Positions 3,088 to 62,423 of a DNA stretch of 64,000 nt are shown piece by piece. The notes beneath the pieces are model-generated. The model saw only the letters and a program-made list of their open reading frames with translations, was not told where the DNA came from and did no database searches. The position numbers and the translations under genes are program-made. Every line of letters begins with the position of its first letter. Within the stretch, counting starts at the first letter, position 1. This DNA is from an uncultured Bacteroidales bacterium (lineage in GTDB: Bacteria > Bacteroidota > Bacteroidia > Bacteroidales > Paludibacteraceae): positions 17,173-81,172 of the forward strand of contig ONND01000008.1 of the NCBI GenBank assembly GCA_900319105.1, in the 5' to 3' direction.

Positions 3088-3150
3088 GGTCGTTAGTCGT
3101 TAGTCGATGGTCGATAGTCAACTGGTATACTAGTCTACTAGTCAACTAGA
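3088..3150. repeat. period-7 tandem array, 9 units (RGTCGWT x5, then ACTAGTC-like units)
   Basis: ggtcgtt agtcgtt agtcgat ggtcgat agtcaac tggtata ctagtct actagtc aactaga. Lies in the intergenic gap between the birA stop and the rfbB start. Confidence 0.9.
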
Positions 3151-3152
3151 CT

Positions 3153-4013
3153 TTATATCACGTATCTCACTTGTTTGAAGTGGTATTTTCGTTCTTTACC
3201 CTGTTGGTCTTGCAGGACGATCTCTCCGTCTGGCAGGATATCTGCGATGCGGGCGAGGAAAGGTGACTTATCAAACCTCTCCCCGTCCCTCTCCTCAAGA
3301 GAGGGAGAGTAGTTCATGGTGGGCGCAAGACTCACTTCGCGCTCTATGAAGCGCCAGAAACCCTCTTTGCGGTAGAGGTGCTCGCGGTAGTACGTCCATA
3401 CCTGCTCTTCGCTCATCGCCTCTGCGGTTTCGATCTGAGTCATCAGCGCTTGCATCAAGGCATCTATATTGGTCTCTGCGCCGGTGATGAGTTTCATCGA
3501 GACGGGGTTCGGGGCGTTAGAGACGAAAGTCGTCTGGTTAACGTTCAGCCCTATGCCGGCGATAGAGTATTTCACTTCATTCCCGATAATGGCGTTCTCT
3601 ATCAGTATTCCCGCTACTTTCTTGTCCTGCCAGTATATATCGTTTGGCCACTTGATAGTTAGATCGGCTTCTTTGCCCAAGGGCACGATTAACGCTTCGC
3701 GATTTTCGCCTGACAGAGTACAGACCGGCTTTGCCTGACAGAGTACAGACTGGATCACTCTATGCACCGCCACGGAGACGAGGACGTTGAGGTAGAACAA
3801 GTCTTTTCTCGGCGGTAAGAGGATGGAGCACAGGAGGTTTTTTCCTTCCTCGCTCTCCCATCTGTTGCCGGCCTGGCCTCGTCCGGCAGTCTGGAAGCCC
3901 GTGTAAAGAAACCGCTCGCCTTCCGGCCATTCGCCTTTCGCCAACAGTTCCTTCATCAGGGTATTGGTACTCTCTGTCCTTTCAACTTTCACTTTTCCCC
4001 TTTCTCCTTGCAC
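3153..4013 (-). CDS. birA: biotin--[acetyl-CoA-carboxylase] ligase (no HTH domain)
   Basis: GRGQAGNRW (GRGRxGRxW-type motif) and KWPNDIYWQDKKVAGILIEN. The start codon at 4013 is GTG and overlaps the dacB end, so the start is uncertain. Contains a hairpin-derived segment (3277-3309). Confidence 0.8.
   Translation of the reverse strand: MQGERGKVKVERTESTNTLMKELLAKGEWPEGERFLYTGFQTAGRGQAGNRWESEEGKNLLCSILLPPRKDLFYLNVLVSVAVHRVIQSVLCQAKPVCTLSGENREALIVPLGKEADLTIKWPNDIYWQDKKVAGILIENAIIGNEVKYSIAGIGLNVNQTTFVSNAPNPVSMKLITGAETNIDALMQALMTQIETAEAMSEEQVWTYYREHLYRKEGFWRFIEREVSLAPTMNYSPSLEERDGERFDKSPFLARIADILPDGEIVLQDQQGKERKYHFKQVRYVI
3277..3309. repeat. GC-rich imperfect hairpin element inside birA
   Basis: ctctccc (3277-3283) pairs with gggagag (3303-3309), with an inner ccctctcc/gagag stem. 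Encodes SPSLEERDGERF on the minus strand. Confidence 0.7.
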
Positions 4014-5377: not shown

Positions 5378-7670
5378 GCATTGCTTTGGCTGCCTTGCGG
5401 CCGTCGGACATAGCGAGGATGACTGTTGCGCCACCACGTACTATGTCTCCGCCCGCGAAGATGGTCGGTATAGCGGATTGCATCTCGTCGTTGACCACGA
5501 TCGTTCCCTTGCGGCTGATCTCCAAACCTTCGACGGACGACGGAATAAGCGGGTTGGGGCTTACGCCGACCGCTACGATCACGAGGTCCACAGGGATAGT
5601 AAGCGTTTTGCCTTCTACGGGCACCGGGCTGCGACGACCTGACTCATCGGGTTCGCCCAGTTCCATTACCTGAAGCACGGCCTCGCATACACGTCCGTTC
5701 TCGTCCGCATGGTACTCAATCGGGTTATGAAGCGTCATGAACTCGATACCTTCCTGCTTGGCATGGTGTACCTCTTCGATACGTGCCGGCATCTCTTCTT
5801 CGGAGCGGCGATAGATGATCATCGCGTGTTCGGCTCCGAGACGTTTAGCGGTACGTACAGCATCCATGGCGGTGTTACCGCCACCGATGACGGCGACGTT
5901 CTTGCCATAAAGCAGCGGCGTGTCGGTAGCGGGATTGGAGGCGTCCATGAGGTTGACGCGGGTGAGGTATTCATTGCAGGAAAGAACACCATTCAGGTTC
6001 TCACCGGGGATATTCATGAAGCGCGGCAGACCGGCTCCCGAGCCGACGAAGATACCCTTGAAGCCTTGTTCCTCCAGTTCCTTGACAGAGATCGTCTTAC
6101 CGATGATCGTGTCCGTATGGAAGTGCACGCCGAGAGCACGAAGACCGTTAATCTCCGTGTCCACGATGGAATTAGGCAAACGGAACTCCGGAATACCATA
6201 TTTAAGCACACCGCCTATCTCGTGCAGCGCCTCGAAGACATGTACTTCGTAACCATACTTAGCGGCATCTCCGGCGAAAGTCAAGCCGGCAGGACCAGAG
6301 CCGACCACGGCGATTTTCGCCGTTGTATTTGAGATTTGAGATTTGACATTTGAGATTTGGGGCTGCGCATTGGCGTAGTCGGCGCAGAAGCGCTCGAGAT
6401 AACCGATGGCGACGGGCTGGTGGCCCATCTTGAGATGGATACAGTTGGCCTCACATTGTTTCTCCTGCGGGCATACTCGACCGCACACAGCGGGCAGGGA
6501 AGAAGACTCCTTAATAACAGCCGCAGCTCCGAGGATATCACCCGTTTCAAGCTTCTTGATAAAGCCCGGGATATTGATGTTCACCGGACAGCCCTGTACG
6601 CAAGTCGGGTTCTTACAGTTGAGGCAACGATGTGATTCGGTGATGGCCTGTTCGAACGTCAGACCCTGGTTGACCTCCTCATGCAGCGATTTGACGCGCA
6701 CTTCGGGACGCAGTTCCGGCATCTGTACACGGGGAATGGCTACACGGTCCTTAGGCTTGCCGTCAAAAGGTTCAACCGGTGTTACTTCCGTCTTACAGAG
6801 GCTTTGACCGTCGTTCGACCGTCGTTCGACCGTCGTTCGACTGTCGTTTTTAGAGGCTGAATAAACCTCCATTGCCGCTGTCTCTTCCGCCTTGTAGGAT
6901 TTCATGCGTGAGAGCATCTCGTCCCAGTCCACGCCGTGGGCGTCGAACTCGGGTCCGTCCACGCAGACGAATTTGGTTTTACCGTCCACGGACACACGGC
7001 ATGCGCCGCACATTCCGGTGCCATCGACCATGATGGTATTGAGGGAGGCTTCCGTCGGGATATTATATTTGGCGGTGGTGAGCGCGACAAACTTCATCAT
7101 GATAGCCGGACCGATGGTGATACATTTATTGACGGTCTCTCGGTTGATGACTTCCTCGACGCCTACGGTTACCACTCCCTGTTTTCCCATCGAGCCATCA
7201 TCGGTCATGACGATCAGTTCGTCCGACCATCGGGACAGTTCATCCTTGAGGATGATGAGGTCTTTGTTCCGGGCAGCGAGGACGGTAATCACTTTGTTTC
7301 CGGCTTTCTTGAGTGCCTCAGCGATCGGTAACATCGGCGCAGCGCCAACCCCTCCGCAGGCACAAACGACTGTGCCGTAGTTCTCAATCCGCGTCGCCTT
7401 GCCTAGCGGGCCTACCACGTCGTGAATACAATCGCCCGGATTGAGCGCCAGCAGTTTATGCGTGGAAACGCCTATCCGCTGCACGACGAGCGTGATCGTA
7501 CCTTTTTCAATATCCGCGCCGGCGATCGTCAAGGGCACACGTTCGGATTGTGCGTCCACACGGATGATGACAAAATGTCCGGCTCTGCGGCTACGCGCAA
7601 TGAGCGGAGCTTCCACTACGAGCTCCGCTACATTGTCCGAGAAAAATCTCTTGGATAAAATTCGATTCAT
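5361..7670 (-). CDS. fused PyrK/NfnA-like ferredoxin-NADP reductase domain plus GltD/NfnB-like NADPH oxidoreductase
   Basis: 769 aa. The N-terminal ~280 aa have an FNR-like fold with a C-terminal Cys cluster (CGACRV). The C-terminal part has 4Fe-4S Cys motifs (CLNCKNPTCVQGCP, CGRVCP) and VAVVGSGPAGL and VIGGGNTAMD dinucleotide folds, typical of the glutamate synthase small chain. Confidence 0.85.
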   Translation of the reverse strand: MNRILSKRFFSDNVAELVVEAPLIARSRRAGHFVIIRVDAQSERVPLTIAGADIEKGTITLVVQRIGVSTHKLLALNPGDCIHDVVGPLGKATRIENYGTVVCACGGVGAAPMLPIAEALKKAGNKVITVLAARNKDLIILKDELSRWSDELIVMTDDGSMGKQGVVTVGVEEVINRETVNKCITIGPAIMMKFVALTTAKYNIPTEASLNTIMVDGTGMCGACRVSVDGKTKFVCVDGPEFDAHGVDWDEMLSRMKSYKAEETAAMEVYSASKNDSRTTVERRSNDGQSLCKTEVTPVEPFDGKPKDRVAIPRVQMPELRPEVRVKSLHEEVNQGLTFEQAITESHRCLNCKNPTCVQGCPVNINIPGFIKKLETGDILGAAAVIKESSSLPAVCGRVCPQEKQCEANCIHLKMGHQPVAIGYLERFCADYANAQPQISNVKSQISNTTAKIAVVGSGPAGLTFAGDAAKYGYEVHVFEALHEIGGVLKYGIPEFRLPNSIVDTEINGLRALGVHFHTDTIIGKTISVKELEEQGFKGIFVGSGAGLPRFMNIPGENLNGVLSCNEYLTRVNLMDASNPATDTPLLYGKNVAVIGGGNTAMDAVRTAKRLGAEHAMIIYRRSEEEMPARIEEVHHAKQEGIEFMTLHNPIEYHADENGRVCEAVLQVMELGEPDESGRRSPVPVEGKTLTIPVDLVIVAVGVSPNPLIPSSVEGLEISRKGTIVVNDEMQSAIPTIFAGGDIVRGGATVILAMSDGRKAAKAMHEYLS
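6326..6360. repeat. period-7 array (GATTTGA x5) in frame in the oxidoreductase
   Basis: tatttga gatttga gatttga catttga gatttgg. Encodes QISNVKSQISN just before the GSGPAG FAD fold. Confidence 0.9.
6806..6849. repeat. period-11 array (GACCGTCGTTC x4) in the interdomain linker
   Basis: Three perfect units and one near-perfect unit. Encodes ...KNDSRTTVERRSNDGQS... between the FNR-like and GltD-like halves. Confidence 0.9.
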
Positions 7671-8549: not shown

Positions 8550-8559
8550 GGTGTATAGG

Positions 8560-8601
8560 AATTAGAAATTAAAAATTAACAATTAACAATTAGAAATTAC
8601 G
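8560..8601. repeat. period-7 array (AATTARN x6)
   Basis: aattaga aattaaa aattaac aattaac aattaga aattacg. Fills the psd-deoC intergenic gap and overlaps the psd stop codon. Confidence 0.9.
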
Positions 8602-16137: not shown

Positions 16138-16165
16138 AAATGTCAAATTTCAAATCTCAAATTTC
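16138..16165. repeat. period-7 array (AAATYTC x4)
   Basis: aaatgtc aaatttc aaatctc aaatttc. Fills the secDF-clpP gap. It is the reverse-complement family of the GATTTGA array at 6326. Confidence 0.85.
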
Positions 16166-16168: not shown

Positions 16169-19100
16169 TTATTTTTTCTCAGCTTTCGCTTCAGCGCGTT
16201 TTGCCTGTGACATCTGGATGTCATAAGCGATCGGCGAAGCGATGAACAGAGATGACCATGTACCTACGATCACACCCATAAGGAGTGCAAATACGAATCC
16301 CTGAATAGTCTCACCACCGAATACGAAGATCGCCAACAATACCACGAATGTGGACATAGAGGTCGAGAACGTACGGCTCAGTGTATTATTCAAGGCGTCG
16401 TTGATATTCACTTTCTTCTCGCGTTTCGGATAGAGGTTATTGTACTCACGAATGCGGTCGAAAATAACCACAGTGTCGTTGATCGAATAACCGATAACGG
16501 TCAGGATAGCCGCGATGAAGGCTTGGTCGATCTCCATGGAGAAAGGCATGATCTTCCAGAGGATCGCGTAGAGACCAAGGATGATCACTGTATCGTGCGC
16601 CAGAGCTACCAATGCACCTACCGAGTAAGCGAAGTTGCGGAAACGGATGAGGATATAGAGGAAGATCACAACAAGCGCAGCGAGCACAGCCCAGATAGCG
16701 CTGGTAGTGATATCATCAGCGATAGCCGGACCTACTTTCTGGCTGGACATGATACCTACGTTGGCATTCGACTCCGTAGAGTGGAAGTCCTCGAAGGTGA
16801 TGTCTTCGCCGAGGAACGGCTTGCATCCCTCGTAGAGCAGACCCTCGATATACTCGTCCGCCTCGGCGTTGTCCTCGTGGATACGGTAGTTGGTGGAGAT
16901 ACGAACCTGGTTGGCGTCGTTACCATAGGTGATGACATTCAGTGAGAAGGTCTCGTCGCCCTCCAGGGTAGCCTTGAAGGTATTCTCCAGACTCTCGCGT
17001 ACCTCCTGGGTATTGATGTTATTATCGAAACGAACGACATAGTTACGTCCACCGGAGAAGTCGATACCGAGGTTCAGTTTACCGAAAATATGCGGTTCCA
17101 GACCTAAAATAGCGAAGATCACCAGCGCACCGGAGAGGCAGTACGCCCACTTGCGTGCAGCCACGAAATCGAAGTGCATGTTTTGGAGGAAGTTCTTCAT
17201 CAGTTTGGTGGTGAAGCTCAGTTCCTTAGCATTCTCACGGTTAGCGTAGTCCTCAAGCAGCAGACGGGTGATGAACACAGCGGTGAGGAACGAAGAAACG
17301 ATACCGATCATGTAGGTAACAGCGAAGCCCTTAATAGGACCTGTACCGAAGATAGCCAGGATAGCACCGGTGAGGAACGAGGTTACGTTCGCATCCACAA
17401 TAGCGCTGATGGCACCCTTGAAACCATCCTCAATAGCCTTACGCATACCCTTACCGGCACGCAACTCCTCGCGGATACGCTCGTAAATCAGCACGTTACC
17501 ATCGACGGCACAACCCATCGTCAGCACGATACCGGCAATACCCGGCAGCGTCAATACGGCGCTGAACGAAGCGAGGATACCCAAGAGCAGGAAGACGTTA
17601 CAAACGAGTGCTGCATCGGCGATGAGACCCGGGATCCAGCCATAGTAGAAAATCATATAGATCAGGATGAGGCAGAAACCCAGTACGAAGGACCAGAGAC
17701 CCGACTGAATAGCCTCGCGACCCAGCGACGGACCTACTACGCTCTCCTCGATGATGCGGGCAGGAGCCGGCATCTTACCGGATTTAAGGGTGTTCGCCAA
17801 GTCTTTTGCCTCTTCTACGGTAAAGTTACCGGTGATCTGGCTGTTACCGCCTGCGATCTCGGTCTGTACGGTCGGGAAGGAATATACATATCCGTCGAGC
17901 ACGATAGCTACCGACTTACCGATATTATCTTTGGTCAGACGCTGCCAGGTCTTAGCTCCCTCGGCATTCATCGACATCGATACATTGGCGTATGCGCTGA
18001 GTTGCGAGAAATCCGCACGAGCGTCAGTGATCACATCTCCCTCAAGGGAAGCACGACCGTCACGCTGTGCCTTAAGCGCTACGAGCTGATAGTATGCACC
18101 TGCCTCGTCAATGGCTTTTACCGTCCAGTAGAAACGTGCGTCACGCGGGAGTACAGCCTTGGCGATCTGCGAGTTGAGCATAGCGTTCACTTTTGCGGTG
18201 TCCACGTAGTGAACCGTACCGATTACCGGGCCGCGGTATGCCTGACCGGCCTGATTGATGGACGGGTTGAGGATGGCAAAGAGCGGGTTGTTCTTCTTGT
18301 ACTCAGCGATCTGTGCCTCCTGGTCGGCCTCTGCCGTTGCAGCGGAATCGCCCAGCAACTCTGCAAGATCGTCGTTCTCTGCCTTCGGTGCCTCTTCTGC
18401 CTTCGGTGCCTCAGCAACCTCTGCTGCTTTTGCCTCTTCGCCAGCCTCAGCTACGTTCGTAGCAGCGAACTCACGGTTGATCTGAGCCAGCATCGGAAGA
18501 AGATCGGAAGCCTCGTACGTCTCCCAGAACTCGAGGTTAGCAGAACCCTGGAGCAGTTTACGAACACGCTCCGGCTCTTTGATACCCGGGAGCTCAATCA
18601 GAATACGCCCCGGCTGAGCAAGTTTCTGGATGTTCGGCTGAACAACACCGAAACGGTCGATACGCGTACGGAGCACGTTGAAGGAGTTCTGGATAGCGCC
18701 GTCCACCTCTTCGCGGATCACTTTCTCCACCTCGGCATTCGTCGAGTTAAGCGTCACTTTGTCCTTGAGCTCGAAAGTAGAGAAGATAGTAGCCAACTGG
18801 CCTTCGGGATCAATCTCCTTGTACGACTCGATGAAGAGCGTAACGAAATCGGCTCCGCTGGCTTTTTGTTTTTGTTTCGCTGCAGCGAGTGCTGCTTTGT
18901 AGTTCGGCGTCTCGTTGTGACCGCTGAGGGCGTCCAGAATGTCCGGAACAGAAACCTCCATCGTCACGTTCATACCGCCCTTGAGGTCCAGACCGAGGTT
19001 AATCTCTTTCTCTCGGCACTCCTTGAGGGTATAACCACACCAAACTTTCTTGGCAGCAATCGAGTCCAAATACTGATACTCTTTAACTGCATCACCTGCC

Positions 19101-21353: not shown

Positions 21354-24300
21354 TTAATCATCGAAGAATCCTAATTGGCTGATAGCGGTTAGCATCCGGT
21401 TGACATAGGCTGTATCGGGTGTGGACCAATGGAAGCCCATACGGAGGAGGACGGCGGAGGTGAAGCGGTTGTTGCGCTCGATAGCGACCGCTTTTTGTCC
21501 GTGTGTCATGTCTTGGTATGCCAAAAGGGCTGACATAAGACTGGCTTTCTTCGGGTCCTGACTGGCATCGAGGATCGCTTGCTGGAACTCCTCATCCTCC
21601 ACATAACGGATGGACTTACCGATCTTATCAAATCCCGCGAGAATATCTCCCAAGAGGTCGGTATGATTGTTAAATGGCTGGAAGACAGTCAGTTCCTTCG
21701 GTGTATGTGCAAGCAGAACAACCGCTTTGGCCGTCTCGTCCACAGGCGAGAACTCCGCCGGCGAGTCGTATTCGTCGATCGGGCAGCAGCCGAGCGTAGA
21801 GAAGACCTTCAAACGTCCCATATAACTGTTCGTCTGGAAATTCGCCTGGAACTCCCCGTCGTAGCTACGCGCCGCGAGGTTACCGACACGCATGATCTTG
21901 GCATTGAGTCCCTGACGCGCCACGGCATCGAGGATGACACGTTCTGCCAAGAACTTAGACCGCATATAGCGGTTGTCGAGGAACTGGCCGAAATAGAGCA
22001 CACGCTCGGTCAGTTCGGGTACCGCCATACCGTCGCCCCTCTCGACCCAGATCTCTCCGACCGACGTAGTGGATATATGTACCAGTCGTGCACCGGTCTT
22101 GAGACAGAACTCCACGCAGCGCTCCGCACCGCCTATATTGACCTGCTCGATATCATCGGTCTTGGAGAAATGCTTCACGTTCGCCGCACAGTTAAAGACG
22201 GTGTTGATAAGACCGCTAACGCTGACAGAGATGTCGCTTGTCACGTCGCCGTTGACGACGAAAAGGCGGGTGCCAAAGAGGTCATCAAAATGGCGGTTGA
22301 AATAATAGAATAGCAAGTTACGCAGACGTCGCTCCGCGTCATGTTGGTCTTTTCCGCGAACAAGACAGGTAATGGTCTTGGCATCGGAGTCGATCAGCTC
22401 GCGCAGAACATGGATGCCTAAGTAGCCGGTAGCTCCGGTCAGGAGGACATTATCCAGTGCACAGAGGGGCGAAGTGCTATGTACAAAGTTCTCCAGGGTG
22501 TTCTTCGCTAAGACTTCATGGATGGCTGAATAGTCGAAATCCTTTTCCTCTTGTTTTTTTTCCTTTGGGTCATTTGAGTCGCCGGACAGGAACTGTGCCA
22601 GGAGACGCGGAGTCGGGTGCGTGAAGATATCACCATAAGCAACGTGTTTGCCGGCCTTGTCCGCCTCGATAATAACGCGGGTGACCATGAGCGACGTACC
22701 GCCCAGTTCGAAGAAATTATCCGTAGCGCCTATCTTATCCTGGTTGAGAATCGAAGCGAAGATATCACAGAAGAGCTTCTCGTTGTCGTTGGACGGCGCT
22801 ACATACTCGCGGTCGGTATCCGTCAGTTGCGGTGCCGGCAGCGCACGTTTGTTCACTTTCTGGTTCTGGTTTAGAGGAATAGCGTCTATCTGCATAGTCG
22901 AAGCCGGTACCATATAAGGCGGCTTGCGGTCGCGGATAAAGGCATTGAGCGTCGGGATGGCGATCTTCACATCGCTGACGATATAGGCGGCGATGAACTT
23001 ACCTCCGTTGGGATAGTCGAAGGCCTGGACGGTAGCGTCCTTGATACCCGGGAACTCACGAATGACCGCTTCTACCTCTTTGAGTTCGATACGGAAACCG
23101 CGGATCTTGACCTGTCCGTCCTGGCGTCCGACAAACTGGATATTACCATCCGGCAGATAACGGACGATGTCGCCGGTGCGGTAGCAGCGGAGACCATTCC
23201 ATTCGATATAAGTCTCGGCGGTCTTGTCGGGACGGTTGAGGTAACCACGGCTGACCTGCGGACCGGAGACGAGCAGTTCGCCTGTCGATCCGACCGGCAC
23301 GCGATGGAGGTCCTGATCGACGATAAAGAGCCGGACGTTATCCAGCGGCTTGCCAATAGGGATGTTCTTCTCCTGCTCATGCATCGGGTACGTCGTGGTG
23401 AAGATAGTACACTCGGTCGGACCGTACGCATTATGGAGTTGGTAGTTAGCCGGCGGCGCAAGGGTCGCGAGTTTCTCTCCTCCGACAGACAAATGGCGGA
23501 GCGAATGGTTGTCGCAGTTCTGCGCGAACTGGTAGCCGACCTGCGTGGTCATGAACGAATGGGTGATACCTTCCGCCTCGAAATAATGATTCAGGTCAGG
23601 CAGGTTCAGACGGATATCCTCGCCGATAATATAGACGGCGGCACCACACGTCAGCGCCGGGTACATATCCATCATGTTCGCATCGAAGCCGTACGAAGCA
23701 TATGCCGCTACCTTGTCTCCGGCATGGAGATCGTAGTAGCGCTGGTACCAATGGCAGAACGCCACGAGATTGCGGTGCTCCAACTGGCATCCTTTGGGCA
23801 CGCCCGTCGAACCGGAGGTATAAAGCAAGATGAATAAATCTTCCGGATGTATATTGGTGATTTTTAATTTGTCATTTGTTACTTGTAATGACTCTAACTC
23901 TTTGGTGAGCAGAACCGGTCCCTCATATTTGTTGACGATAGCACGAAGGTCTTCATCCGCAATAAGGAGAGTGGCATTCGCATCCTTCATCATGAAGTTC
24001 AAACGCTCTGCCGGATAAGACGGATCGAGCGGCTGATAAGCACAGCCGGCTTTGAGAGCCGCCAAGGAAGCGACCACCATCCATTCGGAGCGGTTGATGA
24101 GGATCGATACAACCGGTTCTTTCTTATCATTACCGATGACCTCTTTGATACGCGCCGCGATCGCGTCCGTACGCGCATCCACCTCTTTATAAGTGAGTCG
24201 CGTGTCATGATAGACAACGGCGATGTTATCGGGTGTCTCAGCCGTCTGGCGACGGAAGAGAGAGACGATGGTCTGGGTGTCGTCATACGGCACTTCGGTC

Positions 24301-27248: not shown

Positions 27249-27257
27249 GGGGGGGGG
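27249..27257. repeat. G9 (C9 on the coding strand) homopolymer abutting the NRPS start codon
   Basis: Positions 27249-27257 are all G. The NRPS ATG is the complement of 27246-27248. The STAS stop is at 27268-27270. Confidence 0.95.
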
Positions 27258-30301: not shown

Positions 30302-30387
30302 GCCGCGATGGTGGAATAGGTAGACACGAAGGACTTAAAATCCTTTGGCCAGTGATGGCTGTGCCGGTTCGACCCCGGCTCGCGGTA
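30302..30387 (+). tRNA. tRNA-Leu (anticodon UAA), type II with a long variable arm
   Basis: Acceptor GCCGCGA/TCGCGGT (G1-U72 wobble). D arm GTGGAATAGGTAGACAC. Anticodon stem AAGGA/TCCTT with loop CTTAAAA. Variable arm GGCCAGTGATGGCT. T arm GCCGG-TTCGACC-CCGGC. Confidence 0.9.
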
Positions 30388-30400
30388 CTAACTACACACA

Positions 30401-33081: not shown

Positions 33082-33122
33082 ACTAGTTATACTAGTTATA
33101 CTAGTTCCACTAGTTGACTACA
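33079..33122. repeat. period-9 array (ACTAGTT x4)
   Basis: ACTAGTT at 33082, 33091, 33100 and 33109. Immediately 3' of the glgB stop. Related to the ACTAGTC units at 3130-3150. Confidence 0.9.
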
Positions 33123-33138: not shown

Positions 33139-33684
33139 ATGAAAAAGAGTATTTATTATTCCTTTGTACTTTGTACATTGTCCCTTTGTACCTTATTGAC
33201 GGCCTGCGCCAAGAAACCCGCTCAGCAGAACGAGCAACAAGAACAACCGCAGGAAAATGAACAAATGGTAAATGACCAAACGGTCAATTACCAGGACATC
33301 ACCGCCCTCACGCCAGACGGCGCTGAACTGTCGCTCAGCGACCTCATCGGACAAACGGACTATGTCCTACTCGATTTCTGGGCGTCCTGGTGCGGACCCT
33401 GCCGACGATTCGTGCCCGTACTCAAGGAGATATACGCTTCGCAACCTGCCGGACATCTGCAGATTCTCAGCTGCTCCGTTGATCAGGATATCATGGCGTG
33501 GCAAGTAGCCCTCAACGAGGAACAGATGCCTTGGCCGCAGATGCGCGAGGACGCAGAACACCCCTGCTCCGATAAGTACAACGTCCAGTTCATCCCTCAT
33601 ACCGTCCTCTTCGACCGCGAGGGAAAAATCGTGGCCGTCAACCCCGAAGAACCCGATCTCGAAGAGATCCTCCTCGGCGAATAA
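33139..33684 (+). CDS. TlpA-like thioredoxin-fold lipoprotein (thiol:disulfide oxidoreductase)
   Basis: Lipobox LLTAC and FWASWCGPCRRFVP (CxxC active site). Confidence 0.85.
   Translation: MKKSIYYSFVLCTLSLCTLLTACAKKPAQQNEQQEQPQENEQMVNDQTVNYQDITALTPDGAELSLSDLIGQTDYVLLDFWASWCGPCRRFVPVLKEIYASQPAGHLQILSCSVDQDIMAWQVALNEEQMPWPQMREDAEHPCSDKYNVQFIPHTVLFDREGKIVAVNPEEPDLEEILLGE
33161..33193. repeat. period-7/8 array (CTTTGTA family) encoding the signal-peptide core
   Basis: cctttgta ctttgta cattgtc cctttgta cc. Translates to FVLCTLSLCTLL. The same family occurs at 55549-55585. Confidence 0.85.
33255..33293. repeat. AAATGACC/AAACGGT family array, in frame
   Basis: aaatgaac aaatggt aaatgacc aaacggt caattacc. 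Encodes ENEQMVNDQTVNYQ in the lipoprotein linker. Confidence 0.85.
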
Positions 33685-33730
33685 ATGACTAAATAAATGG
33701 TAAATTGTAAATGAACAAATAGTAAATGAA
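33683..33730. repeat. AAATGAMY family array, intergenic
   Basis: aaatgact aaat aaatggt aaattgt aaatgaac aaatagt aaatgaa. Fills the gap between the tlpA-like gene and nagB. Confidence 0.85.
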
Positions 33731-34551: not shown

Positions 34552-34623
34552 GTATCGTTATTCTTTGGAGTGTCGGTATTAATTGGAGTATCGTTATTCC
34601 CTGGAGTGTCGTTATTCTTTAAT
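34552..34623. repeat. 18-nt tandem repeat x4
   Basis: gtatcgttattctttgga / gtgtcggtattaattgga / gtatcgttattccctgga / gtgtcgttattctttaat. Starts 9 nt after the nagB stop. Confidence 0.9.
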
Positions 34624-34665: not shown

Positions 34666-34936
34666 GTCCATTTCCCGGCATGCTATGCCGGCATATATAC
34701 CTCTGTGCATTTTTGTCGCATCCTTGCGACAACGGTGAAGGGCTTTGCCCGATCGAGCGTCCTGTGGACGGTCGTAGAACAAAACGGGTGGGGCTCCCCT
34801 CCTCCCACACTTATAAAACCATAAGATTGCCCAACCATTACCGAAGGATTACCCAAGGATAAAACCCCAAAAAGTGCATTTAGGCGCTTTTACTGTATAT
34901 ATACATAGTATATATACACTTTTTACCCTTCCCACA

Positions 34937-34957
34937 CCTAATCCCCTAACCCCTAAT
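34937..34957. repeat. period-7 array CCCTAAY x3
   Basis: cctaatc ccctaac ccctaat. Confidence 0.8.
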
Positions 34958-34986: not shown

Positions 34987-35000
34987 AACGACTAACGACC
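34987..35000. repeat. AACGACY x2 (reverse complement of the RGTCGTT family at 3088)
   Basis: aacgact aacgacc is the reverse complement of ggtcgtt agtcgtt. Confidence 0.75.
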
Positions 35001-43742: not shown

Positions 43743-45241
43743 GCTTTAGCTGGTTCGTATTCGTTGGGGATGATACCATCGAGTATGGCATCCTTGATGG
43801 CGGATTTCAATTCGCCTACTATAGAACAAGGTTCGAGATGCAGGATCTCCATGATCTCATCGCCTTTAACCGGCGGTTGGAAATTACGGATCCGGTCTCG
43901 CTCCTCCAATTCGACCATCTTCTGTCGAACGAGCTGATAGTTCCGATGAAATCGGGCTTTTTTCTCTTCATTACGGCTGGTGATGTCTGCATCGCATAGC
44001 ACCATCAGATCCTCTATATCATCGCCTGCCTCAAAGAGCAGACGACGTACAGCGCTGTCCGTAACGGTGTCTTCAATCAGGTTGATTGGCCGCATATGCA
44101 GGTCCACCATCTTCTTCACGTACTCCATCTTCTCGTTCAGCGGTAGTTTCATCTTCGCGAAGATCTTCGGTACCATCTTGGCGCCCAGATAATTATGGTT
44201 GCGGAAAGTCCATCCCGCCTGCGGATCCCAGGCCTTGCTACGCGGCTTGCCTATATCGTGCAGCAGCGCCGCCCATCTCAACCAAAGCTTGGTATCTCGG
44301 TCTGTCAGCGTAGCGGTCTGTGTTCTGTCAGCAAGGCGGTCTGTGTTCTGTAACTCCGCTACATTATCCAGCACCTTCAGGGTGTGCAGGAAGACATCTT
44401 TATGCCCCCGACCCTCTTTGACCTCGATGCCCTTGAGGGCGGCCAACTCAGGGAAGATAAGCGGTAAAAGCCCGGTTTTATCGAGCAAAAGCCATCCCTC
44501 CGAGGGCTTGCGCGAGAGCATGATTTTATTCAACTCTTCCGCAATACGCTCTTTGGTAATAATATGAATACGTTCTTTATTGCGCGCGATAGCATCGAAA
44601 GTTTCGCCATCAAGATTGAATCCTAACTGCGTTGCGAAGCGTATTGCCCTCATCATACGCAACGGATCGTCCGAGAACGTGATATCCGGATCAAGCGGCG
44701 TACGGATGATACAACGCTCTAAATCCCCGATTCCATCGAAAGGATCGAGCAGTTCGCCGTACCGGTCCTGATTGAGACAGATAGCCATGGCGTTGATCGT
44801 AAAATCCCGCCGGTTCTGGTCCTCCTCCAGCGTACCATCCTCCACAATCGGATTGCGGCTGTCGTGCTGGTAACTCTCTCTCCGTGCGCCTACGAACTCC
44901 AATTCTAATTCCGTCCTACTATGGGGTTTCCCCCCTCCACGGGGGGGCCGAAGGGGGGCTTTGACTTGCGCCGTGCCGTAGGTTTTGAAGACCGACAGAT
45001 GAGCACCCTTGCCCAGCCGTTTGGCTACAGCTTCTGCCAACAGGATTCCTACGCCGGAGCGTTGGGTATCTCGGTCTGTATTCGGATTAACCGCCACGAT
45101 GTCGATATCATCCGAAGGACGATGTAGGAACAGGTCCCGTACCCAGCCGCCGATGACGTAACACTCCAAGCCCAAACGATCGGCCTCTTCGCCGACCAAA
45201 TGAAGGATGGGATTATCTATTTTCGGGTCCGTAATTTGCAT
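43703..45241 (-). CDS. CCA-adding enzyme / poly(A) polymerase family nucleotidyltransferase with an HD domain
   Basis: 512 aa. GGWVRDLFL...DDIDIV (NTase motif), RRDFTINAM and LLHDIGKP (HD). Carries two repeat-derived inserts (44297-44352 and 44923-44963). Confidence 0.85.
   Translation of the reverse strand: MQITDPKIDNPILHLVGEEADRLGLECYVIGGWVRDLFLHRPSDDIDIVAVNPNTDRDTQRSGVGILLAEAVAKRLGKGAHLSVFKTYGTAQVKAPLRPPRGGGKPHSRTELELEFVGARRESYQHDSRNPIVEDGTLEEDQNRRDFTINAMAICLNQDRYGELLDPFDGIGDLERCIIRTPLDPDITFSDDPLRMMRAIRFATQLGFNLDGETFDAIARNKERIHIITKERIAEELNKIMLSRKPSEGWLLLDKTGLLPLIFPELAALKGIEVKEGRGHKDVFLHTLKVLDNVAELQNTDRLADRTQTATLTDRDTKLWLRWAALLHDIGKPRSKAWDPQAGWTFRNHNYLGAKMVPKIFAKMKLPLNEKMEYVKKMVDLHMRPINLIEDTVTDSAVRRLLFEAGDDIEDLMVLCDADITSRNEEKKARFHRNYQLVRQKMVELEERDRIRNFQPPVKGDEIMEILHLEPCSIVGELKSAIKDAILDGIIPNEYEPAKAYLLELARERGLL
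44297..44352. repeat. imperfect direct repeats (CGGTCTGTGTTCTGT..) in frame in the cca-like gene
   Basis: cggtctgtcagcgtag / cggtctgtgttctgtcagcaagg / cggtctgtgttctgtaac. Encodes NTDRLADRTQTATLTDR. Confidence 0.85.
44923..44963. repeat. GC-rich hairpin element in frame in the cca-like gene
   Basis: ggggtttcccccctccacgggggggccgaaggggggctttg. Contains C7 and G7 runs. Encodes KAPLRPPRGGGKPH. Confidence 0.85.
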
Positions 45242-51881: not shown

Positions 51882-51882
51882 T

Positions 51883-55094: not shown

Positions 55095-56095
55095 AATGTC
55101 ATCAGTCGATAGGTGAGGTATGCGATATATACGAGCAGTAACAAACCACCCGCCCAACGCTGGATCTCCCGTTCATGATTGGTTTTAACCGCCATCCATA
55201 CAATGATACTACCCAGCGCGGCTACACAGGCGTCGAGCTCGATGCCCTCGTACGCCGGTAGCGGACGCAAGGTGGCACTGGTCCCCAAAACAAAGAACAC
55301 ATTGAAGATATTCGAGCCGATCACATTACCTAATGCGATATCGGAGTTATGCTTGAAGGCAGCGATGACGGAGGTCGCCAGTTCGGGCAAAGAGGTACCC
55401 AAGGCAACGATGGTCAATCCTACTACCGCTTCGCTCACTCCCATGCGGGTCGCTAAATCCACAGCACTCTTGACGATCAACTCTCCGCCTACTACCAATC
55501 CCACTAATCCGCCTAAAATCAATGCGATTGCTCGTCTGACAGGTATTTCCTTTGTACTTTGTACATTATCCCCTTGCCCTTCCTCCGGGTGCTCCTTCGT
55601 ATGGCGGAACATATTATACAGGAAATAGACGAAAAGGAGCAACAGGATGATGCCGCCCATTCGGCCGATCCCTTTCTCCGTCTCGCCGAAAGGTAACTGT
55701 ACTGTCACAAAAATGAGTACCAGAACACCGGCGATGATAGACATCGGGATATCGAAATCGCGGCTGCGCTTCTGGGAGGCTACGGGATAGACCAGCGCCG
55801 TCAGACCCAAGATCACCAACGTATTGATGATATTAGAGCCTAAGATATTCGTGATCGCCAAATCAGTCGAACCCTCAGCTACAGAGACCATGTTCACCAC
55901 GAACTCCGGCATTGAGGTACCAAAAGCCACCACGGTCAGACCAATCACCAGATCGCTGATACCAAAACGCTTGGCTATCGCACTCGAACCGTCCACCAGG
56001 AAATCAGCTCCTTTGACAAGCACGACAAATCCCACGACGATCAGTACCACCGCCACCCACCATCCGTAGGCTAATAAGTTATTTATAATATCCAT
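55091..56095 (-). CDS. calcium/sodium antiporter (CaCA, YrbG-type)
   Basis: Two alpha-repeats, GTSMPEF and GTSLPELATS. 10-11 TM segments. Confidence 0.9.
   Translation of the reverse strand: MDIINNLLAYGWWVAVVLIVVGFVVLVKGADFLVDGSSAIAKRFGISDLVIGLTVVAFGTSMPEFVVNMVSVAEGSTDLAITNILGSNIINTLVILGLTALVYPVASQKRSRDFDIPMSIIAGVLVLIFVTVQLPFGETEKGIGRMGGIILLLLFVYFLYNMFRHTKEHPEEGQGDNVQSTKEIPVRRAIALILGGLVGLVVGGELIVKSAVDLATRMGVSEAVVGLTIVALGTSLPELATSVIAAFKHNSDIALGNVIGSNIFNVFFVLGTSATLRPLPAYEGIELDACVAALGSIIVWMAVKTNHEREIQRWAGGLLLLVYIAYLTYRLMTL
55549..55585. repeat. CTTTGTA family array in frame in the antiporter's central loop
   Basis: cctttgta ctttgta cattatc cccttgcc cttcc. Read on the minus strand it encodes EEGQGDNVQSTKE. 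Confidence 0.85.
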
Positions 56096-56111
56096 AATTC
56101 TTCTTTTTTTT

Positions 56112-56145
56112 CTCTCCCCCTCTGCGGGGGAGCCGGAGGGGGCTA
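56112..56145. repeat. GC-rich hairpin element, intergenic
   Basis: ctccccc-tctgc-gggggag followed by ccggaggggg. Lies between the ychF stop and the antiporter start. Confidence 0.8.
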
Positions 56146-57249: not shown

Positions 57250-57253
57250 ATTC

Positions 57254-57288
57254 TCTAAACTTTAAACTTTAAACTATCAACTATCACT
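57254..57288. repeat. period-7 array (TTTAAAC/TATCAAC x5)
   Basis: tctaaac tttaaac tttaaac tatcaac tatcact. Fills the C69-ychF gap. Confidence 0.9.
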
Positions 57289-60483: not shown

Positions 60484-61523
60484 TTAGGGTCCGCATCTGC
60501 GGCAATTTTAGTTACGTTTTTCATTTCATTCAACTGGACGGGAACAGTAATAAACTTATTGTTCTCCGACCCGACAAACGGCATATACCATACGCCTTTT
60601 TCATTGGCCCAGTAGATACGGTTATCCTTGGTATCCAGCGTCATCGCGTTACATGCCATCGAATCGATCTGAACGTTATGGGCGCCATCGAGATAAGCCA
60701 CCCATAATCCGTTCGCACGATAGTATATCTTCCTGCTCGCGATATGAAAACCCACAATACCCGGGAAGATCGGAGAGAGGTCTTCTATCGTAAATACATA
60801 ATTATTATACCGCTGGGTGGTATCTTGTTCTTGGTTCAGTAACGCGTTGGGTTCGGCCAGCTTTTTTGCCGGTTCGGCTCTATCTCCGAAGATACGCTGA
60901 CGATAATCCCCCTCCTCCGTACGCAGCAGCACCGAACGGGTCGTACGATCGGATACGTCATACCTCTTCTCGATATCGGTCAGCACACCGTTCAGGGTGA
61001 CTCGCAGACCTATCCTGGCCTCGCTTATGGGACGCGTGAAATAGAGGTGCAGCGTACTCATATTCATCGCCGTATCGGTAATGATGCAATAAGGCGGGAT
61101 GAACTCCGTCGGATCGGTCGGAAGATACCATTCGTATTTCACGTCGTAGTTATAGGGATTGTACACGACGGCCTTGAACGTATAATCGGTATAAATAGTG
61201 AAATCCGTTTCCTCACAGGTGAACGTAGGGATCGTATCATAGATAATGATCTCTTTGGTCGCCGTACGGGACGATTTCTTGTCCACCTTCAGCGTTACAC
61301 GGTAGGTTCCGGGTTGCTTATAGGTGTAAGTAGGCGATTTCAGAGTCGAGGTGGCACCGCTGCCAAAGATCCACTCCCATTCCTCGCCGGAAGAAGAGTG
61401 ATTGGCAAAATAAACCGGTTCTCCGGCACGGGGAGCCGCAGGACTATACGTGAAATCCACATTAATGTGCTTGCACGCCATCAGCGCCAAGCCAAGCATC
61501 GATAAGAGTACTATTTTTCTCAT
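60480..61523 (-). CDS. PKD-domain lipoprotein
   Basis: Lipobox LALMAC and a PKD-like segment FTYSP...VYFANHS...WIFGSG...YTYKQPGTYRVTLKV. The start (ATG 61523) overlaps the miaA 3' end. Confidence 0.7.
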   Translation of the reverse strand: MRKIVLLSMLGLALMACKHINVDFTYSPAAPRAGEPVYFANHSSSGEEWEWIFGSGATSTLKSPTYTYKQPGTYRVTLKVDKKSSRTATKEIIIYDTIPTFTCEETDFTIYTDYTFKAVVYNPYNYDVKYEWYLPTDPTEFIPPYCIITDTAMNMSTLHLYFTRPISEARIGLRVTLNGVLTDIEKRYDVSDRTTRSVLLRTEEGDYRQRIFGDRAEPAKKLAEPNALLNQEQDTTQRYNNYVFTIEDLSPIFPGIVGFHIASRKIYYRANGLWVAYLDGAHNVQIDSMACNAMTLDTKDNRIYWANEKGVWYMPFVGSENNKFITVPVQLNEMKNVTKIAADADPK

Positions 61524-62394
61524 ATGTATCATGGGCATTCAACCATTGTATTTCTTTATCTTTTCTAAACCAGGTCATCTGCCGTTTGGCATAATGACGC
61601 GTGTTTTGCTGGATCAGTTCGATCGCGCGATCCAGATCGTATTGGCCATCGAAATAATCGAATAGTTCGCGGTAACCGACCGTCTGCAGGCTGTTCAGAC
61701 TCCGTTTGGGATAGACCTTCCGCGCTTCTTCCACCATCCCGTCCGCTATCATCTGCTTCACGCGCTCGTTAATACGCGCGTATAGCTCGCCGCGCTCGCG
61801 CGTAATACCTATTTTGAGGATGCGGAACGGACGCTCTTTGCGGCTCCTCGTGCGCAGCGAGGAATAGGGCTGACCGACGGTAAGACTCAACTCCACACAA
61901 TGCGCCAGACGCGCAGGGTTGTGCTGATCCACTTCCTCCCAATAAGCGGGATCTAACCGTTGCACCTCGGCTTGCAACCACGCTATGCCGTGCGCCTCGT
62001 ATTGCGCCTTCACATAAGCGCGGATATCCGATGGAACCGAAGGAAGATCGTCCAATCCATGACAAACGGCATCGGCGTAGAGCATCGATCCGCCTACCAT
62101 TACTACCACCTCGTGAGTCTTGAATAACTCTTCCAACAACGCTAATGCGTCCCGTTCATACTCGCCGGCATTATAGTCCTCTTCCAACGAACGTGTTCCG
62201 ATGAAATAGTGCTTCACGCGCGCTTGCTCTTCCGCCGTCGGCGCAGCCGTACCAATCGGGATCTCACGGTAGATCTGCCGACTGTCGCAACTCACGATTG
62301 GTGCCTTGTAGCGCTCCGCTATGCGCAACGACAACTCGGTCTTACCGACGCCCGTCGGACCGACTATTAAAAGCAATGTTTTCACTTTAGCCAT
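61462..62394 (-). CDS. miaA: tRNA dimethylallyltransferase
   Basis: IVGPTGVGKTELS P-loop and SCDSRQIYREIPIGTA. Confidence 0.93.
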   Translation of the reverse strand: MAKVKTLLLIVGPTGVGKTELSLRIAERYKAPIVSCDSRQIYREIPIGTAAPTAEEQARVKHYFIGTRSLEEDYNAGEYERDALALLEELFKTHEVVVMVGGSMLYADAVCHGLDDLPSVPSDIRAYVKAQYEAHGIAWLQAEVQRLDPAYWEEVDQHNPARLAHCVELSLTVGQPYSSLRTRSRKERPFRILKIGITRERGELYARINERVKQMIADGMVEEARKVYPKRSLNSLQTVGYRELFDYFDGQYDLDRAIELIQQNTRHYAKRQMTWFRKDKEIQWLNAHDTYEKNSTLIDAWLGADGVQAH

Positions 62395-62423
62395 TAGCCA
62401 TTAGCCGTTAGCCAATAGCCGCC
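62386..62423. repeat. period-7 array (ATTAGCC x5)
   Basis: tttagcc attagcc attagcc gttagcc aatagcc gcc. Spans the miaA start codon and the upstream gap. Confidence 0.9.

Follow-up and report, generated by a model that had tools for sequence, protein, structure and literature searches.

Dispersed heptanucleotide tandem arrays between and within the genes of rumen Paludibacteraceae

Introduction

Records of tandem repeats dominated by 7-nt units in scattered bacteria go back to 1990, with more systematic accounts from 2007 onwards, and no mechanism has gained acceptance. They include the STRR (short tandemly repeated repetitive sequences) of heterocystous cyanobacteria, the heptameric SSRs found in Nostoc and in Xanthomonas (Rehm et al. 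2015, PMC4692102) and the LSSR5-11 of Mrazek, Guo and Shah (2007), which, as summarised in PMC4679880 and PMC4692102, have 5-11-nt units with heptamers commonest, were interpreted as a slippage-driven expansion tendency and not as a selected function, and were reported mainly for large genomes, to which the later summary adds high G+C. Geobacter metallireducens carries blocks of four tandem GGGACCG units at 49 sites and of five MTYCTGA units at 15, between and within genes, which have been read as regulatory elements (Aklujkar et al. 2009, PMC2700814). TAACTGA repeats occur in Beggiatoaceae, cyanobacteria and five Bacteroidetes, among them Paludibacter propionicigenes, which has two sets only (MacGregor 2015, PMC4679880). 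Tandem repeats have also been described in Borg elements (Schoelmerich et al. 2023, PMC9879509).

Here we analyze a 64-kb stretch of a rumen Bacteroidales genome (Paludibacteraceae; GCA_900319105.1, contig ONND01000008.1), hereafter the window, together with a comparison set of 80 related species (rumen Paludibacteraceae MAGs, 1.44 Mb in total). A first-pass annotation had read its repeats as microsatellite-like period-7 arrays that belong to a few families, lie both in intergenic regions and in frame within genes, and have STRR as their nearest analogue, and all four parts of this reading hold. Its remark that no equivalent had been described for the Bacteroidales needs softening in view of the five Bacteroidetes with TAACTGA repeats (PMC4679880); a full-text literature search for tandem repeats in Paludibacteraceae found no paper, and the literature searched gave no description of such heptamer arrays for this lineage.

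With these arrays the Bacteroidales have their own version of the dispersed tandem heptanucleotides already represented by STRR, LSSR5-11 and the Geobacter four-heptamer elements, which adds a new lineage to a known phenomenon. Both they and STRR consist of tandem heptamers of a few families at many loci. Like the Nostoc and Xanthomonas repeats, they are over-represented between co-directional ORFs and near stop codons, vary in length and sequence among close relatives and prefer about four units. In contrast, STRR belong to heterocystous cyanobacteria, a different phylum, whereas the nearest genomes here are all Paludibacteraceae/Bacteroidales MAGs (the closest 80 matches being rumen or gut Paludibacteraceae or "uncultured Bacteroidales" MAGs). 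Furthermore, the units here are A-tract-rich and not G-rich, and the G-quadruplex account of four units therefore does not apply; and about a third to half of the arrays lie inside coding regions, where the Xanthomonas and Nostoc repeats are under-represented. As in LSSR5-11, 5-11-nt units exceed chance, heptamers are commonest and lengths vary in the manner of slipped strands; compared with the published summaries of that class, the present arrays differ in occurring in rumen MAGs of about 50% G+C and in having a second discrete period of 11, an upper limit of about 5 units and identical arrays at dispersed sites. The Geobacter elements share architecture and copy number with them, although the main Geobacter family is GC-rich and the many families here are mostly A-rich; GGGACCG is not among the unit families found, and a CTGA-type unit at 28298-28336 resembles both MTYCTGA and TAACTGA. 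The TAACTGA repeats, too, are direct heptamer repeats of 2-6 copies, which lie immediately before start codons or across stop codons and can, when reversed, fall inside ORFs and encode LSVISYQ-like peptides, yet those genomes have essentially one unit and this lineage has dozens of unit families. Borg units are longer, and those within ORFs always have a length divisible by three, in contrast with the 7-nt units read here in all three frames.

Results

Arrays in the window

About 25 short tandem arrays were found in the window, most with period 7 or 8, and none in dinucleotide shuffles. Our periodicity scan returned seven arrays of period 7, four of period 14, two of period 21 and 0-2 at each remaining period, against 0.0 in 20 dinucleotide shuffles. 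TRF gave 57 rows for the 64-kb window and 8 rows, one a weak period-7 row, for a 50-kb E. coli control. The first-pass annotation had listed at least 20 arrays: TRF recovers 18 of 20 positions, with agreeing units. At score 30, TRF does not report 23866-23900, where degenerate heptamers are recognizable by eye only; 55549-55585 shrinks to 55550-55564 (2.1 copies, score 30); and 34937-34957 is reported, yet weak (2.8 copies). TRF adds arrays at 3978-4013, 18378-18412, 25905-25934 and 34825-34860. Every listed coding-region array is in frame, as had been claimed, and Pfam bears out the host gene names with one exception, the "GltD-like" protein, which proves to be a fused NfnA-NfnB-type oxidoreductase. 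The arrays are identical across independent assemblies of the same strain and are therefore not assembly artefacts; the dispersed heptamer arrays are confirmed as real.

Coordinates below are from TRF unless indicated, and domains from Pfam. Between genes, two abutting arrays, GTCGWTA (4.4 copies) and TAGTCAAC (4.4 copies), occupy the whole gap between two minus-strand genes (3089..3149; TRF and sequence). CCTTTCA (5.1 copies, AAAGGTG family) marks the junction of an S13 peptidase gene and a lipoate-ligase-like gene (3978..4013), an AATTAAA-type array (5.7 copies) separates co-directional neighbours (8556..8599), and AAATNTC (4 copies) lies immediately downstream of the SecDF gene, with both neighbours on the minus strand (16138..16165). 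On the plus strand, ACTAGTTAT (3.8 copies, 33082..33115) begins at the GlgB stop codon, and an array of the TAAATGG / 15-mer family (33694..33730) occupies the gap up to the next start codon. The 18-mer TCGTTATTCATTGGAGTG (3.5 copies, 34555..34617) lies downstream of the glucosamine-6-P isomerase gene, and the 11-mer GATTACCCAAG (3.3 copies, 34825..34860) in the long intergenic region upstream of a giant gene; there are also a weak CCTAATCC array (2.8 copies, 34937..34957) and a short run of CGACTAA (1.5 copies, 34988..34998) that was absent from the earlier list and emerged from strain alignment. Arrays of TAAACTT / AACTATC (57256..57286, co-directional neighbours) and TTAGCCA (4.9 copies, 62387..62420) each occupy an intergenic gap.

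Within minus-strand genes, the fused oxidoreductase carries ATTTGAG (4.7 copies, in frame as PQISNVKSQISNT) in the loop preceding its FAD-binding domain (6327..6359; TRF and PDB alignment) and, in frame, the 11-mer GACCGTCGTTC (3.9 copies) in the linker between its NfnA-like and NfnB-like halves (6806..6848). SecDF has an 18-mer (1.9 copies) between the P1 N-terminal and head subdomains (18378..18412). In the NRPS, strain alignment places an ATTTGTC-like degenerate heptamer run in the adenylation domain (23866..23900), a site at which strains L088, L089 and L094 have another, longer repeat, and GCTTCGG (4 copies) lies in the linker following AMP-binding_C (25905..25934). The SpoIIE/PP2C protein contains ATTGGCT (4.4 copies, in frame as KNSQKPIANSQC) in its HATPase domain (27805..27835) and CTGAWWM (4.6 copies), degenerate TAACTGA-type in reverse orientation (PIISSQDSVISI), in its SpoIIE domain (28298..28336). 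The cca-like nucleotidyltransferase has a 23-mer (2.2 copies), in frame, in the loop of its HD domain (44301..44351), and there is a short, weak GTACAAA-family run (2.1 copies, NVQSTK) in the central loop between two Na_Ca_ex repeats (55550..55585).

Among plus-strand genes, GlgB has a perfect AAGCCAA array (4.7 copies, in frame as KPKAKSQKPKA) in a surface loop, identified as a hot-spot site from its orthologues (31489..31521); like the array at 27805..27835, it belongs to the AGCCAA family. The thioredoxin-like protein has CTTTGTA (4.1 copies, in frame as SFVLCTLSLCTL) in the hydrophobic core of its lipoprotein signal peptide (33162..33191), 15-18 nt above the short allele of other species, and, in frame in the linker past the signal peptide, the 15-mer AAATGAMCAAAYGGT (2.6 copies, 33255..33293), a member of a dispersed family. 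The 15-mer AAATGACCAAAYGGT (2.3 copies, in frame as QNDQTVNDQMVNI) lies about 43 residues from the C-terminus of a 2693-aa protein (43176..43209).

The STRR units CCCCAGT, TTGGTCA and CAACAGT had no match in the window as two tandem copies with up to 2 mismatches. TAACTGA had one degenerate match (28302-28315, 2 mismatches), and 36 of 100 shuffles contained one as good.

Period, borders and location across related species

The period spectrum of the 80 species comprises 148 arrays of period 7, 47 of period 11, 29 of period 8 and 0-2 at periods 2-6, and TRF counts in the clade are 342, 108 and 107 for periods 7, 11 and 8; the heptamer is thus the commonest unit length, in the order 7 >> 11 > 8, with periods 2-6 almost empty. 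Shuffled sequence (1.5 Mb) gave no array beyond 3 copies and none at 3.5 or more. In both TRF and an independent scan, copy number has its mode at 3.5-5 units (about 30-34 nt) and drops steeply above 5.5, the low-copy end of this distribution being partly detection-limited. A typical array consists of AAAKnnn repeated about 4 times and a closing A-tract, roughly 30-34 nt in all. Read on the A-rich strand, arrays start with an A-tract and stop shortly beyond one; 145 period-7 arrays contain an A-run, and 102 of these have their start at phase 3-5, where the A-run begins, and 96 their end 1-2 bases past an A-run. The arrays are 62-68% A+T in hosts of about 50% G+C.

Of the period-7 arrays, 51% are intergenic, compared with about 12% of the DNA, as are 55 of 59 period-11 arrays. 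Intergenic arrays lie mainly between co-directional genes, at a median of 6.5 nt from the upstream stop codon versus 18.5 nt to the downstream start; about 37% fall within 10 nt of the downstream start, as placed by crude start-codon calls. Their sense strand is A-rich in 128 cases vs 78. Inside called ORFs there are 150 period-7 arrays, with the 7-nt units read in all three frames; the coding share is inflated, because gene calls were crude (first ATG) and of 178 "coding" arrays 78 begin or lie within the initial 20% of the ORF. Coding arrays occupy loops, linkers and signal peptides in conserved proteins, the hosts being housekeeping genes (GlgB, SecDF, NfnAB-like, cca-like), and their peptides are enriched in S, Q, K and N. 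They are A-rich (S/Q/K/N) in hydrophilic settings and T-rich in hydrophobic ones, with the frame kept and stop codons avoided.

Variation among strains and species

Whole-unit copy-number differences between strains were found at two sites. The array downstream of GlgB has exactly one additional 9-nt unit in strain L088 (+9 nt at 33092), and CGACTAA at 34988 has 1.5 units in the window vs 2.5-3.5 in other strains. The array at 33694..33730 is strongly divergent in L002, its flanks being almost identical. In comparisons of strains that differ by 3-10%, arrays have a 4-9 times greater density of indels and a 1.5-3 times higher level of substitutions. Arrays in 3088-8601 showed no length change among strains at least 99.3% identical, and none of the coding-region arrays inspected had a frameshifted allele among strains.

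The coding segments had also been taken for lineage-specific insertions, which is correct for GlgB and the cca-like protein; some arrays overwrite an existing loop without lengthening it. The GlgB array adds 7 aa relative to human GBE1, in a loop that is hypervariable in 78 orthologues and is built, depending on species or strain, from AAGCCAA, AAGTCAA, AAATCAA/C, AAATCGA or AAATCGT; alignment of these units shows that they evolve in concert at the orthologous site. The cca-like HD loop (44301..44351) is 54 nt longer than the short allele, five sister species having a 4-residue loop, and comparison of L018 with L025 shows the filled allele to be unrelated to the short one. The 6326-6360 array, in contrast, aligns almost gap-free (one gap position) to PDB 4ylf_B, with loop length nearly unchanged. 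A second protein (ELKAH..IIGVIG) also has short and filled alleles at the same codon positions, including five alleles of exactly 72 nt (exactly +36 nt) from at least 3 unit families, whereas inserts at the GlgB and cca-like sites range from +9 to +66 nt. An array is present at a particular orthologous junction in only 40-55% of species, with differing units.

GC-rich palindromic inserts also occupy array hot-spot sites, one of them within a heptamer array.

Recurrence and dispersal of unit families

Recurring unit families, as had been proposed, are evident already in the window, where the 15-mer AAATGACCAAACGGT has 10 matches at up to 3 mismatches vs 1.55 expected. Same-unit pairs number 400 vs 73 under a composition null; the excess is 5-10-fold under composition and stop-codon nulls and still 2-fold, with about half of it gone, under a null preserving A-tract and positional preferences. 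Sharing of identical units is 3 times commoner within than between genomes, and arrays of one family favour a common strand in a ratio of 29:6; inside coding regions the same families occur in both orientations. Exact 30-nt two-unit matches to AAATGACCAAAYGGT were found in at least 72 unrelated flank contexts in metagenome contigs, with sharp ends. The (AAATGACCAAATGGT)2.3 block has a perfect core of 35-37 nt in 57 of 82 cases and a fixed phase (start in 76 of 82, end in 66 of 82), and its flanks show no decaying periodicity.

Discussion

The best reading of these data, to which we assign a probability of roughly 0.55, is A-tract-mediated slippage combined with a dispersal step, filtered by selection and mostly neutral. 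Slipped-strand mispairing would create and resize the arrays, the A-tract serving as microhomology. A 7-nt loop would exceed the reach of MutS-type mismatch repair. Arrays occur as blocks, at permissive hot spots whose counterparts in sister species are short. Since unit families from a restricted set turn up again and again at unrelated sites, a second step that copies array sequence between sites would be needed, for which template switching and ectopic conversion are candidates. Selection would then set the survivors, as their locations directly imply: spacers of co-directional genes, which they span from the stop codon almost as far as the following start, and protein loops, linkers and signal-peptide cores. 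Most arrays would be neutral or selfish filler and not regulators. Slippage with dispersal accounts neither for the secondary period of 11 nor for the ceiling near 5 units.

Periods 7 and 11, about 4.6 units and A-tract borders are regularities that any mechanism must meet, and the clade is an unusually good natural experiment, with hundreds of sister species and strains sequenced from rumen metagenomes and, in well-understood proteins, hot-spot sites at which both short and filled alleles occur. The arrays generate strain-specific low-complexity loops in conserved enzymes, confuse start-codon calling and could act as strain markers in rumen metagenomics.

A rather improbable alternative treats the arrays as discrete miniature cassettes, either mobile or templated. 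Blocks of about 35 nt, of defined sequence and phase, would be written into permissive sites by a dedicated enzyme, such as a transposase-like protein, a primase-polymerase or a reverse transcriptase on a short RNA template, and slippage would only modify them later. The (AAATGACCAAATGGT)2.3 block, in at least 72 unrelated contexts with largely fixed phases, a 35-37-nt core peak and flanks free of decaying periodicity, is in keeping with such an enzyme, as are the five +36-nt alleles from at least 3 unit families at one site, the threefold within-genome excess of identical units, the 29:6 strand bias of same-family arrays, and the GC-rich palindromic inserts at the same hot-spot sites. However, an associated gene was not found, target-site duplication was not demonstrated, and A-tract ends are equally predicted by microhomology slippage; moreover, the +9 to +66 nt range at the GlgB and cca-like sites does not suggest a fixed block, and units at one site form a one-step mutational series, as in-place evolution predicts. 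It is similarly doubtful that one conserved templated or transposition-like process writes such defined-phase heptamer cassettes of about 35 nt in this clade, Geobacter, Beggiatoaceae, Xanthomonas, cyanobacteria and some phages (CTGA-type and GGTGATT-type families). Were cassettes indeed written, the arrays would represent a new class of miniature mobile repeat, able to land in frame in essential proteins.

Somewhat less probable again is pure in-place slippage from chance local seeds, with no site-to-site transfer and with recurrence reflecting composition, A-tracts and coding constraints. Whole-unit polymorphism, concerted evolution and A-tract borders are all expected from it, as is the loss of about half of the recurrence excess under the A-tract/positional null, and polymerase-footprint slippage was proposed for the predominance of heptamers (Mrazek 2007, as summarised in PMC4679880 and PMC4692102). 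Yet the residual identical-unit excess is 2-fold (5-10-fold under composition and stop-codon nulls), and three window sites strongly suggest identical arrays of at least 30 nt at many non-homologous sites of one genome. Slippage on local seeds could not yield a 15-mer array of the AAATGACCAAAYGGT type in at least 72 unrelated contexts, nor filled alleles that share nothing with the short allele.

That the arrays are functional cis-elements, acting as translation-initiation leaders or as sites for RNA- or DNA-binding proteins, as proposed for the Beggiatoaceae TAACTGA repeats, appears unlikely. Initiation in Bacteroidetes is generally not led by Shine-Dalgarno sequences, and A-rich unstructured leaders are favoured. 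Many arrays reach or enter the start codon, as several species show upstream of the isomerase gene, the intergenic sense strand is A-rich (128 vs 78) and most neighbours are co-directional. Against such a role, orthologous junctions have an array in only 40-55% of species and with differing units, RNA folding predictions give no consistent picture (z-scores between +0.5 and -4.5), the same families occur in coding regions in both orientations, and intergenic arrays lie nearer the upstream stop (median 6.5 nt) than the downstream start (median 18.5 nt).

Finally, phase-variation (contingency) loci, in which 7-nt frameshifts or changes in promoter spacing would switch genes, are a very improbable explanation: although units that are not multiples of 3 would shift the frame with each one-unit change and arrays mutate faster than their flanks, the 3088-8601 arrays are stable in length in near-identical strains (at least 99.3%) and are therefore not such loci, the coding-region arrays inspected showed no frameshifted allele among strains, arrays have just 4-5 units, and their hosts are housekeeping genes and not surface or antigen genes.

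Detection and anatomy of the arrays

The first-pass annotation had listed 20 array positions in the window, 18 of which were recovered with their units using Tandem Repeats Finder (TRF). Among the other stretches claimed as arrays, the run of heptamers at 23866-23900 is degenerate and goes unreported by TRF, and 55549-55585 is given by TRF as 2.1 copies only. The TRF output for the 64-kb window comprised 57 rows, including arrays beyond that list at 3978-4013, 18378-18412, 25905-25934 and 34825-34860, and strain alignment added a short one at 34988-34998. For comparison, TRF yielded 8 rows in 50 kb of E. coli, with a single weak period-7 match. A periodicity scan of the window, independent of TRF, detected seven arrays of period 7, four of period 14 and two of period 21, with 0-2 at other periods. 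The corresponding count in twenty dinucleotide-preserving shuffles was 0.0, compared to the seven at period 7, confirming an excess over shuffled sequence. The orientation of the arrays in the window tracks gene sense rather than GC skew, which is uniformly negative there. Scanning of the window with Rfam and a tRNA search identified tRNA-Leu alone, and no array in it matched a known RNA family at the gathering threshold.

The length distribution of period-7 arrays has its mode at 30-34 nt (3.5-5 units) and drops sharply above 5.5 units, both by TRF and by a scan without the TRF threshold, and period-11 arrays likewise peak near 3.5-4.5 units. When 145 period-7 arrays were each turned to their A-rich strand, the array start coincided with the start of an A-run in 102 cases, and its end fell 1-2 bases past an A-run in 96. 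The typical array can therefore be described as about four (AAAKnnn) units closed by a further AAAK. A-runs of at least three bases occur in 98/207 units, compared to 63/207 after shuffling, and the base following the A-run is seldom C. A+T accounts for 62-68% of array sequence in this ~50% G+C genome, and A alone for ~38% of the sense strand of the arrays.

Distribution in the lineage

Several ENA metagenome contigs encode a GlgB identical to that of the window. A scan of relatives, taking one genome per species, provided 80 GlgB-anchored loci (1.44 Mb), all of them from rumen or gut MAGs labelled Paludibacteraceae or uncultured Bacteroidales, with GlgB identities of 77-93%. The period spectrum of these loci is very sharp and is led by period 7 (n=148), followed by periods 14 (n=101), 11 (n=47), 21 and 22 (n=35 each) and 8 (n=29), with 0-2 arrays at periods 2-6. 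A further 525 kb of metagenome contigs presented the same spectrum, so that the arrays characterize the lineage and are not particular to the window. The density of period-7/8 arrays peaks in the closest relatives, at 29.7 per 100 kb for GlgB identities of at least 87%, compared to 13-15 per 100 kb in more distant relatives (<87%).

Placement between and inside genes

In agreement with the intergenic placement initially proposed, half of the period-7 arrays are intergenic, compared to ~12% of the DNA, as are 55 of the 59 period-11 arrays. The genes flanking intergenic arrays are mostly co-directional; the arrays lie at a median of 6.5 nt from the upstream stop codon, which they overlap in 63 of 210 cases, and of 18.5 nt from the downstream start. 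The coding-region arrays listed for the window are in frame without exception, and coding-region arrays translate into S/Q/K/N-rich segments. In the window they occupy linkers and loops, namely the NfnA-NfnB junction, the GlgB loop, the HD-domain loop of the cca-like enzyme and the loop at the center of the CaCA antiporter, and also the signal peptide of a lipoprotein. Stop trinucleotides are depleted in coding-region consensus units (27%, compared to 46% expected) and mildly enriched in intergenic ones, with the proviso that gene calls start at the first ATG, so that some "coding" arrays near ORF starts may be intergenic.

Pfam agrees with the host genes that had been named, with the correction that the supposed "GltD-like" host joins an NfnA-like half to an NfnB-like half. 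This oxidoreductase (5361-7670) is a single chain composed of NfnA-like residues 1-270 and NfnB-like residues 315-769, parts that form two distinct subunits in solved structures (4ylf and 5jca), and the linker of the fusion is an 11-mer tandem array.

Short and filled alleles at orthologous sites

Orthologue alignments of GlgB and the cca-like protein bear out the suggestion that arrays inside conserved genes can be lineage-specific insertions. The loop at window 31489-31521 is hypervariable across 78 GlgB orthologues whose remaining sequence is ~90% identical: many species present the short form NKGKKFKEK, and filled forms contain AAGCCAA, GTCAAAA, ACAAAGG, AAATCAC or CGAAAAT arrays, or a 14-mer. 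Many of these units are one step apart, indicative of concerted evolution. The window loop exceeds that of human GBE1 by 7 residues. The cca-like enzyme of the window is likewise 54 nt longer than the short form, a 4-residue loop in a 45-nt region found in five species, and other species have 57-111 nt at the same position, occupied either by a GC-rich palindrome or by repeats of four unrelated types. In a third protein, five alleles with at least three unit families are exactly 72 nt long, and the short form is 36 nt. A constant insert size was rejected as a general rule: the third protein gains exactly 36 nt in all five alleles, but the GlgB and cca-like sites gain 9 to 66 nt. Conserved gene junctions carry an array in 40-55% of species, with unlike units. 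For SpoIIE/PP2C, synteny is lost in the 80 loci, and they provided only distant paralogues.

Variation among strains

Across ten contigs with 90-100% identity to the window, array-bearing proteins differ in length, whereas adjoining genes are constant. Copy-number polymorphism was observed as a gain of exactly one unit (9 nt) at 33092 in one strain, and as 1.5-3.5 units of CGACTAA at 34988 among strains. Furthermore, the GlgB loop presents three unrelated alleles of equal length. Inside arrays, the density of indels is raised 4-9-fold and that of substitutions 1.5-3-fold, and strains at least 99.3% identical show no change in array length over 3088-8601. The strain comparison thus reveals arrays that are fast-evolving yet not hypermutable, and the constancy of array length over 3088-8601 led us to reject phase variation.

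The strain alignments also revealed a G run at window 27249-27257, which reads as poly-C on the strand of the NRPS gene, where it immediately precedes the ATG. The run ranges from 5 to 9 nt among strains and resembles a homopolymer tract located in a promoter or leader. One otherwise near-identical strain (L100) carries a 56-nt deletion at the position of window 10615 that breaks the 2-hydroxyacid dehydrogenase gene into two ORFs.

Recurring unit families

With orthologous contexts collapsed, identical-unit pairs numbered 400, compared to 73 under composition nulls, which upholds the earlier claim of recurring families. Separate treatment of coding-region and intergenic arrays, with stop-codon constraints in the null, gave a 5-10-fold excess, and a null that keeps A-tract and positional preferences still left a 2-fold excess. 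Units are shared three times as much within genomes as between them, mostly on the same strand.

The 15-mer AAATGACCAAAYGGT occupies three window sites (33255-33293, 33694-33730 and 43176-43209), as well as unrelated sites in other species. An exact two-unit search matched more than 120 metagenome contigs, and the 82 occurrences fetched present at least 72 flank contexts. The perfect core of these arrays peaks at 35-37 nt with sharply fixed start and end phases, and no periodic decay was found in the flanks of the 82 occurrences; 48 of them lie in long open frames in sense orientation, encoding NDQMVNDQMVN. A search of viral contigs did not find this family.

Separately, (AATCACC)3, whose unit is common in this clade, occurs in 12 IMG/VR viral contigs (L104-L115) with G+C contents of 45-74%, mostly in arrays of 3.4-5.6 units. 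Some heptamer families are therefore common to very different genomes; these matches establish that the unit is widespread and say nothing on hosts.

Comparison with known repeats and possible origin

Among long simple sequence repeats, heptamers were reported to be the most frequent unit in many bacteria, with polymerase slippage as the proposed cause (Mrazek 2007, as summarized in PMC4679880 and PMC4692102). Xanthomonas and Nostoc harbor dispersed heptamer repeats between co-directional ORFs, with a preference for four units (PMC4692102), and the Geobacter metallireducens genome contains elements of tandem heptamers, four units long at 49 sites and five units long at 15, located both intergenically and inside genes (PMC2700814). 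TAACTGA repeats have been reported in Beggiatoaceae, cyanobacteria and five Bacteroidetes, including Paludibacter (PMC4679880). The window array at 28298-28336 is in frame and composed of the CTGA-type units ATACTGA, TAACTGA, ATCCTGA and CTACTGA. It is similar to the Beggiatoaceae TAACTGA repeats and also to the Geobacter elements of five MTYCTGA heptamers, and its reverse orientation codes for a peptide similar to the published LSVISYQ. Borg repeats (PMC9879509) are A-enriched like the arrays and also give rise to low-complexity protein segments, but the Borg repeats inside ORFs have exclusively units divisible by three, unlike the arrays described here. A literature search combining Paludibacteraceae with "tandem repeat" found no paper. 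This comparison therefore places the arrays among already known heptamer repeats, of which they are a new, unusually rich case.

Microhomology-mediated slippage would make and resize such arrays, and it predicts the A-tract borders, fractional extra unit, whole-unit polymorphism and concerted evolution observed. Loops of 7 nt generally escape MutS-type repair, and those formed by these arrays would do so too. A dispersal step would have to be added on top of slippage, because slippage alone leaves unexplained both the identical arrays at dozens of unrelated sites and the filled alleles unrelated to short ones. It is possible that a dedicated cassette-writing process makes the arrays. A regulatory role is unlikely as a general explanation, given that array presence is patchy, that RNA folding predictions gave no consistent structure (nine intergenic stretches were folded, of which seven were arrays plus short flanks, and they had no structural property in common) and that arrays of the same families are found in both orientations within coding regions.

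GC-rich palindromes and a tRNA-Leu insert

A second class of filler consists of small GC-rich palindromic inserts (CCCCTCCC..GGGGAGG..GGGG), located at window 25575-25655, 34785-34810 and 56100-56140 and, in strain contigs L092 and L085, at the position of window 33112. They lie inside an NRPS linker and in intergenic DNA, and a strain-specific palindrome of 37-41 nt sits in the middle of a heptamer array. GC-rich palindromes also fill the GlgB and cca-like loops of other species, encoding P/S/G/R-rich peptides. A strict C-rich/G-rich hairpin search returned 4 elements, with a pattern too strict to define the class.

The tRNA-Leu(UAA) gene of the window (30302-30388) is without an intron. Related strain contigs L086 (5858-6630), L092 and L085 carry a 686-nt insertion in this gene, exactly between anticodon positions U34 and A35, which we take to be the classic site of cyanobacterial and plastid tRNA-Leu(UAA) introns. 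The insert contains a 164-aa ORF with a weak HNH match and scores 28.6 bits (E 5.8e-5) against the Rfam group I intron, below the gathering score; it looks like a putative strain-polymorphic group I intron with a homing endonuclease in a rumen Bacteroidales bacterium.
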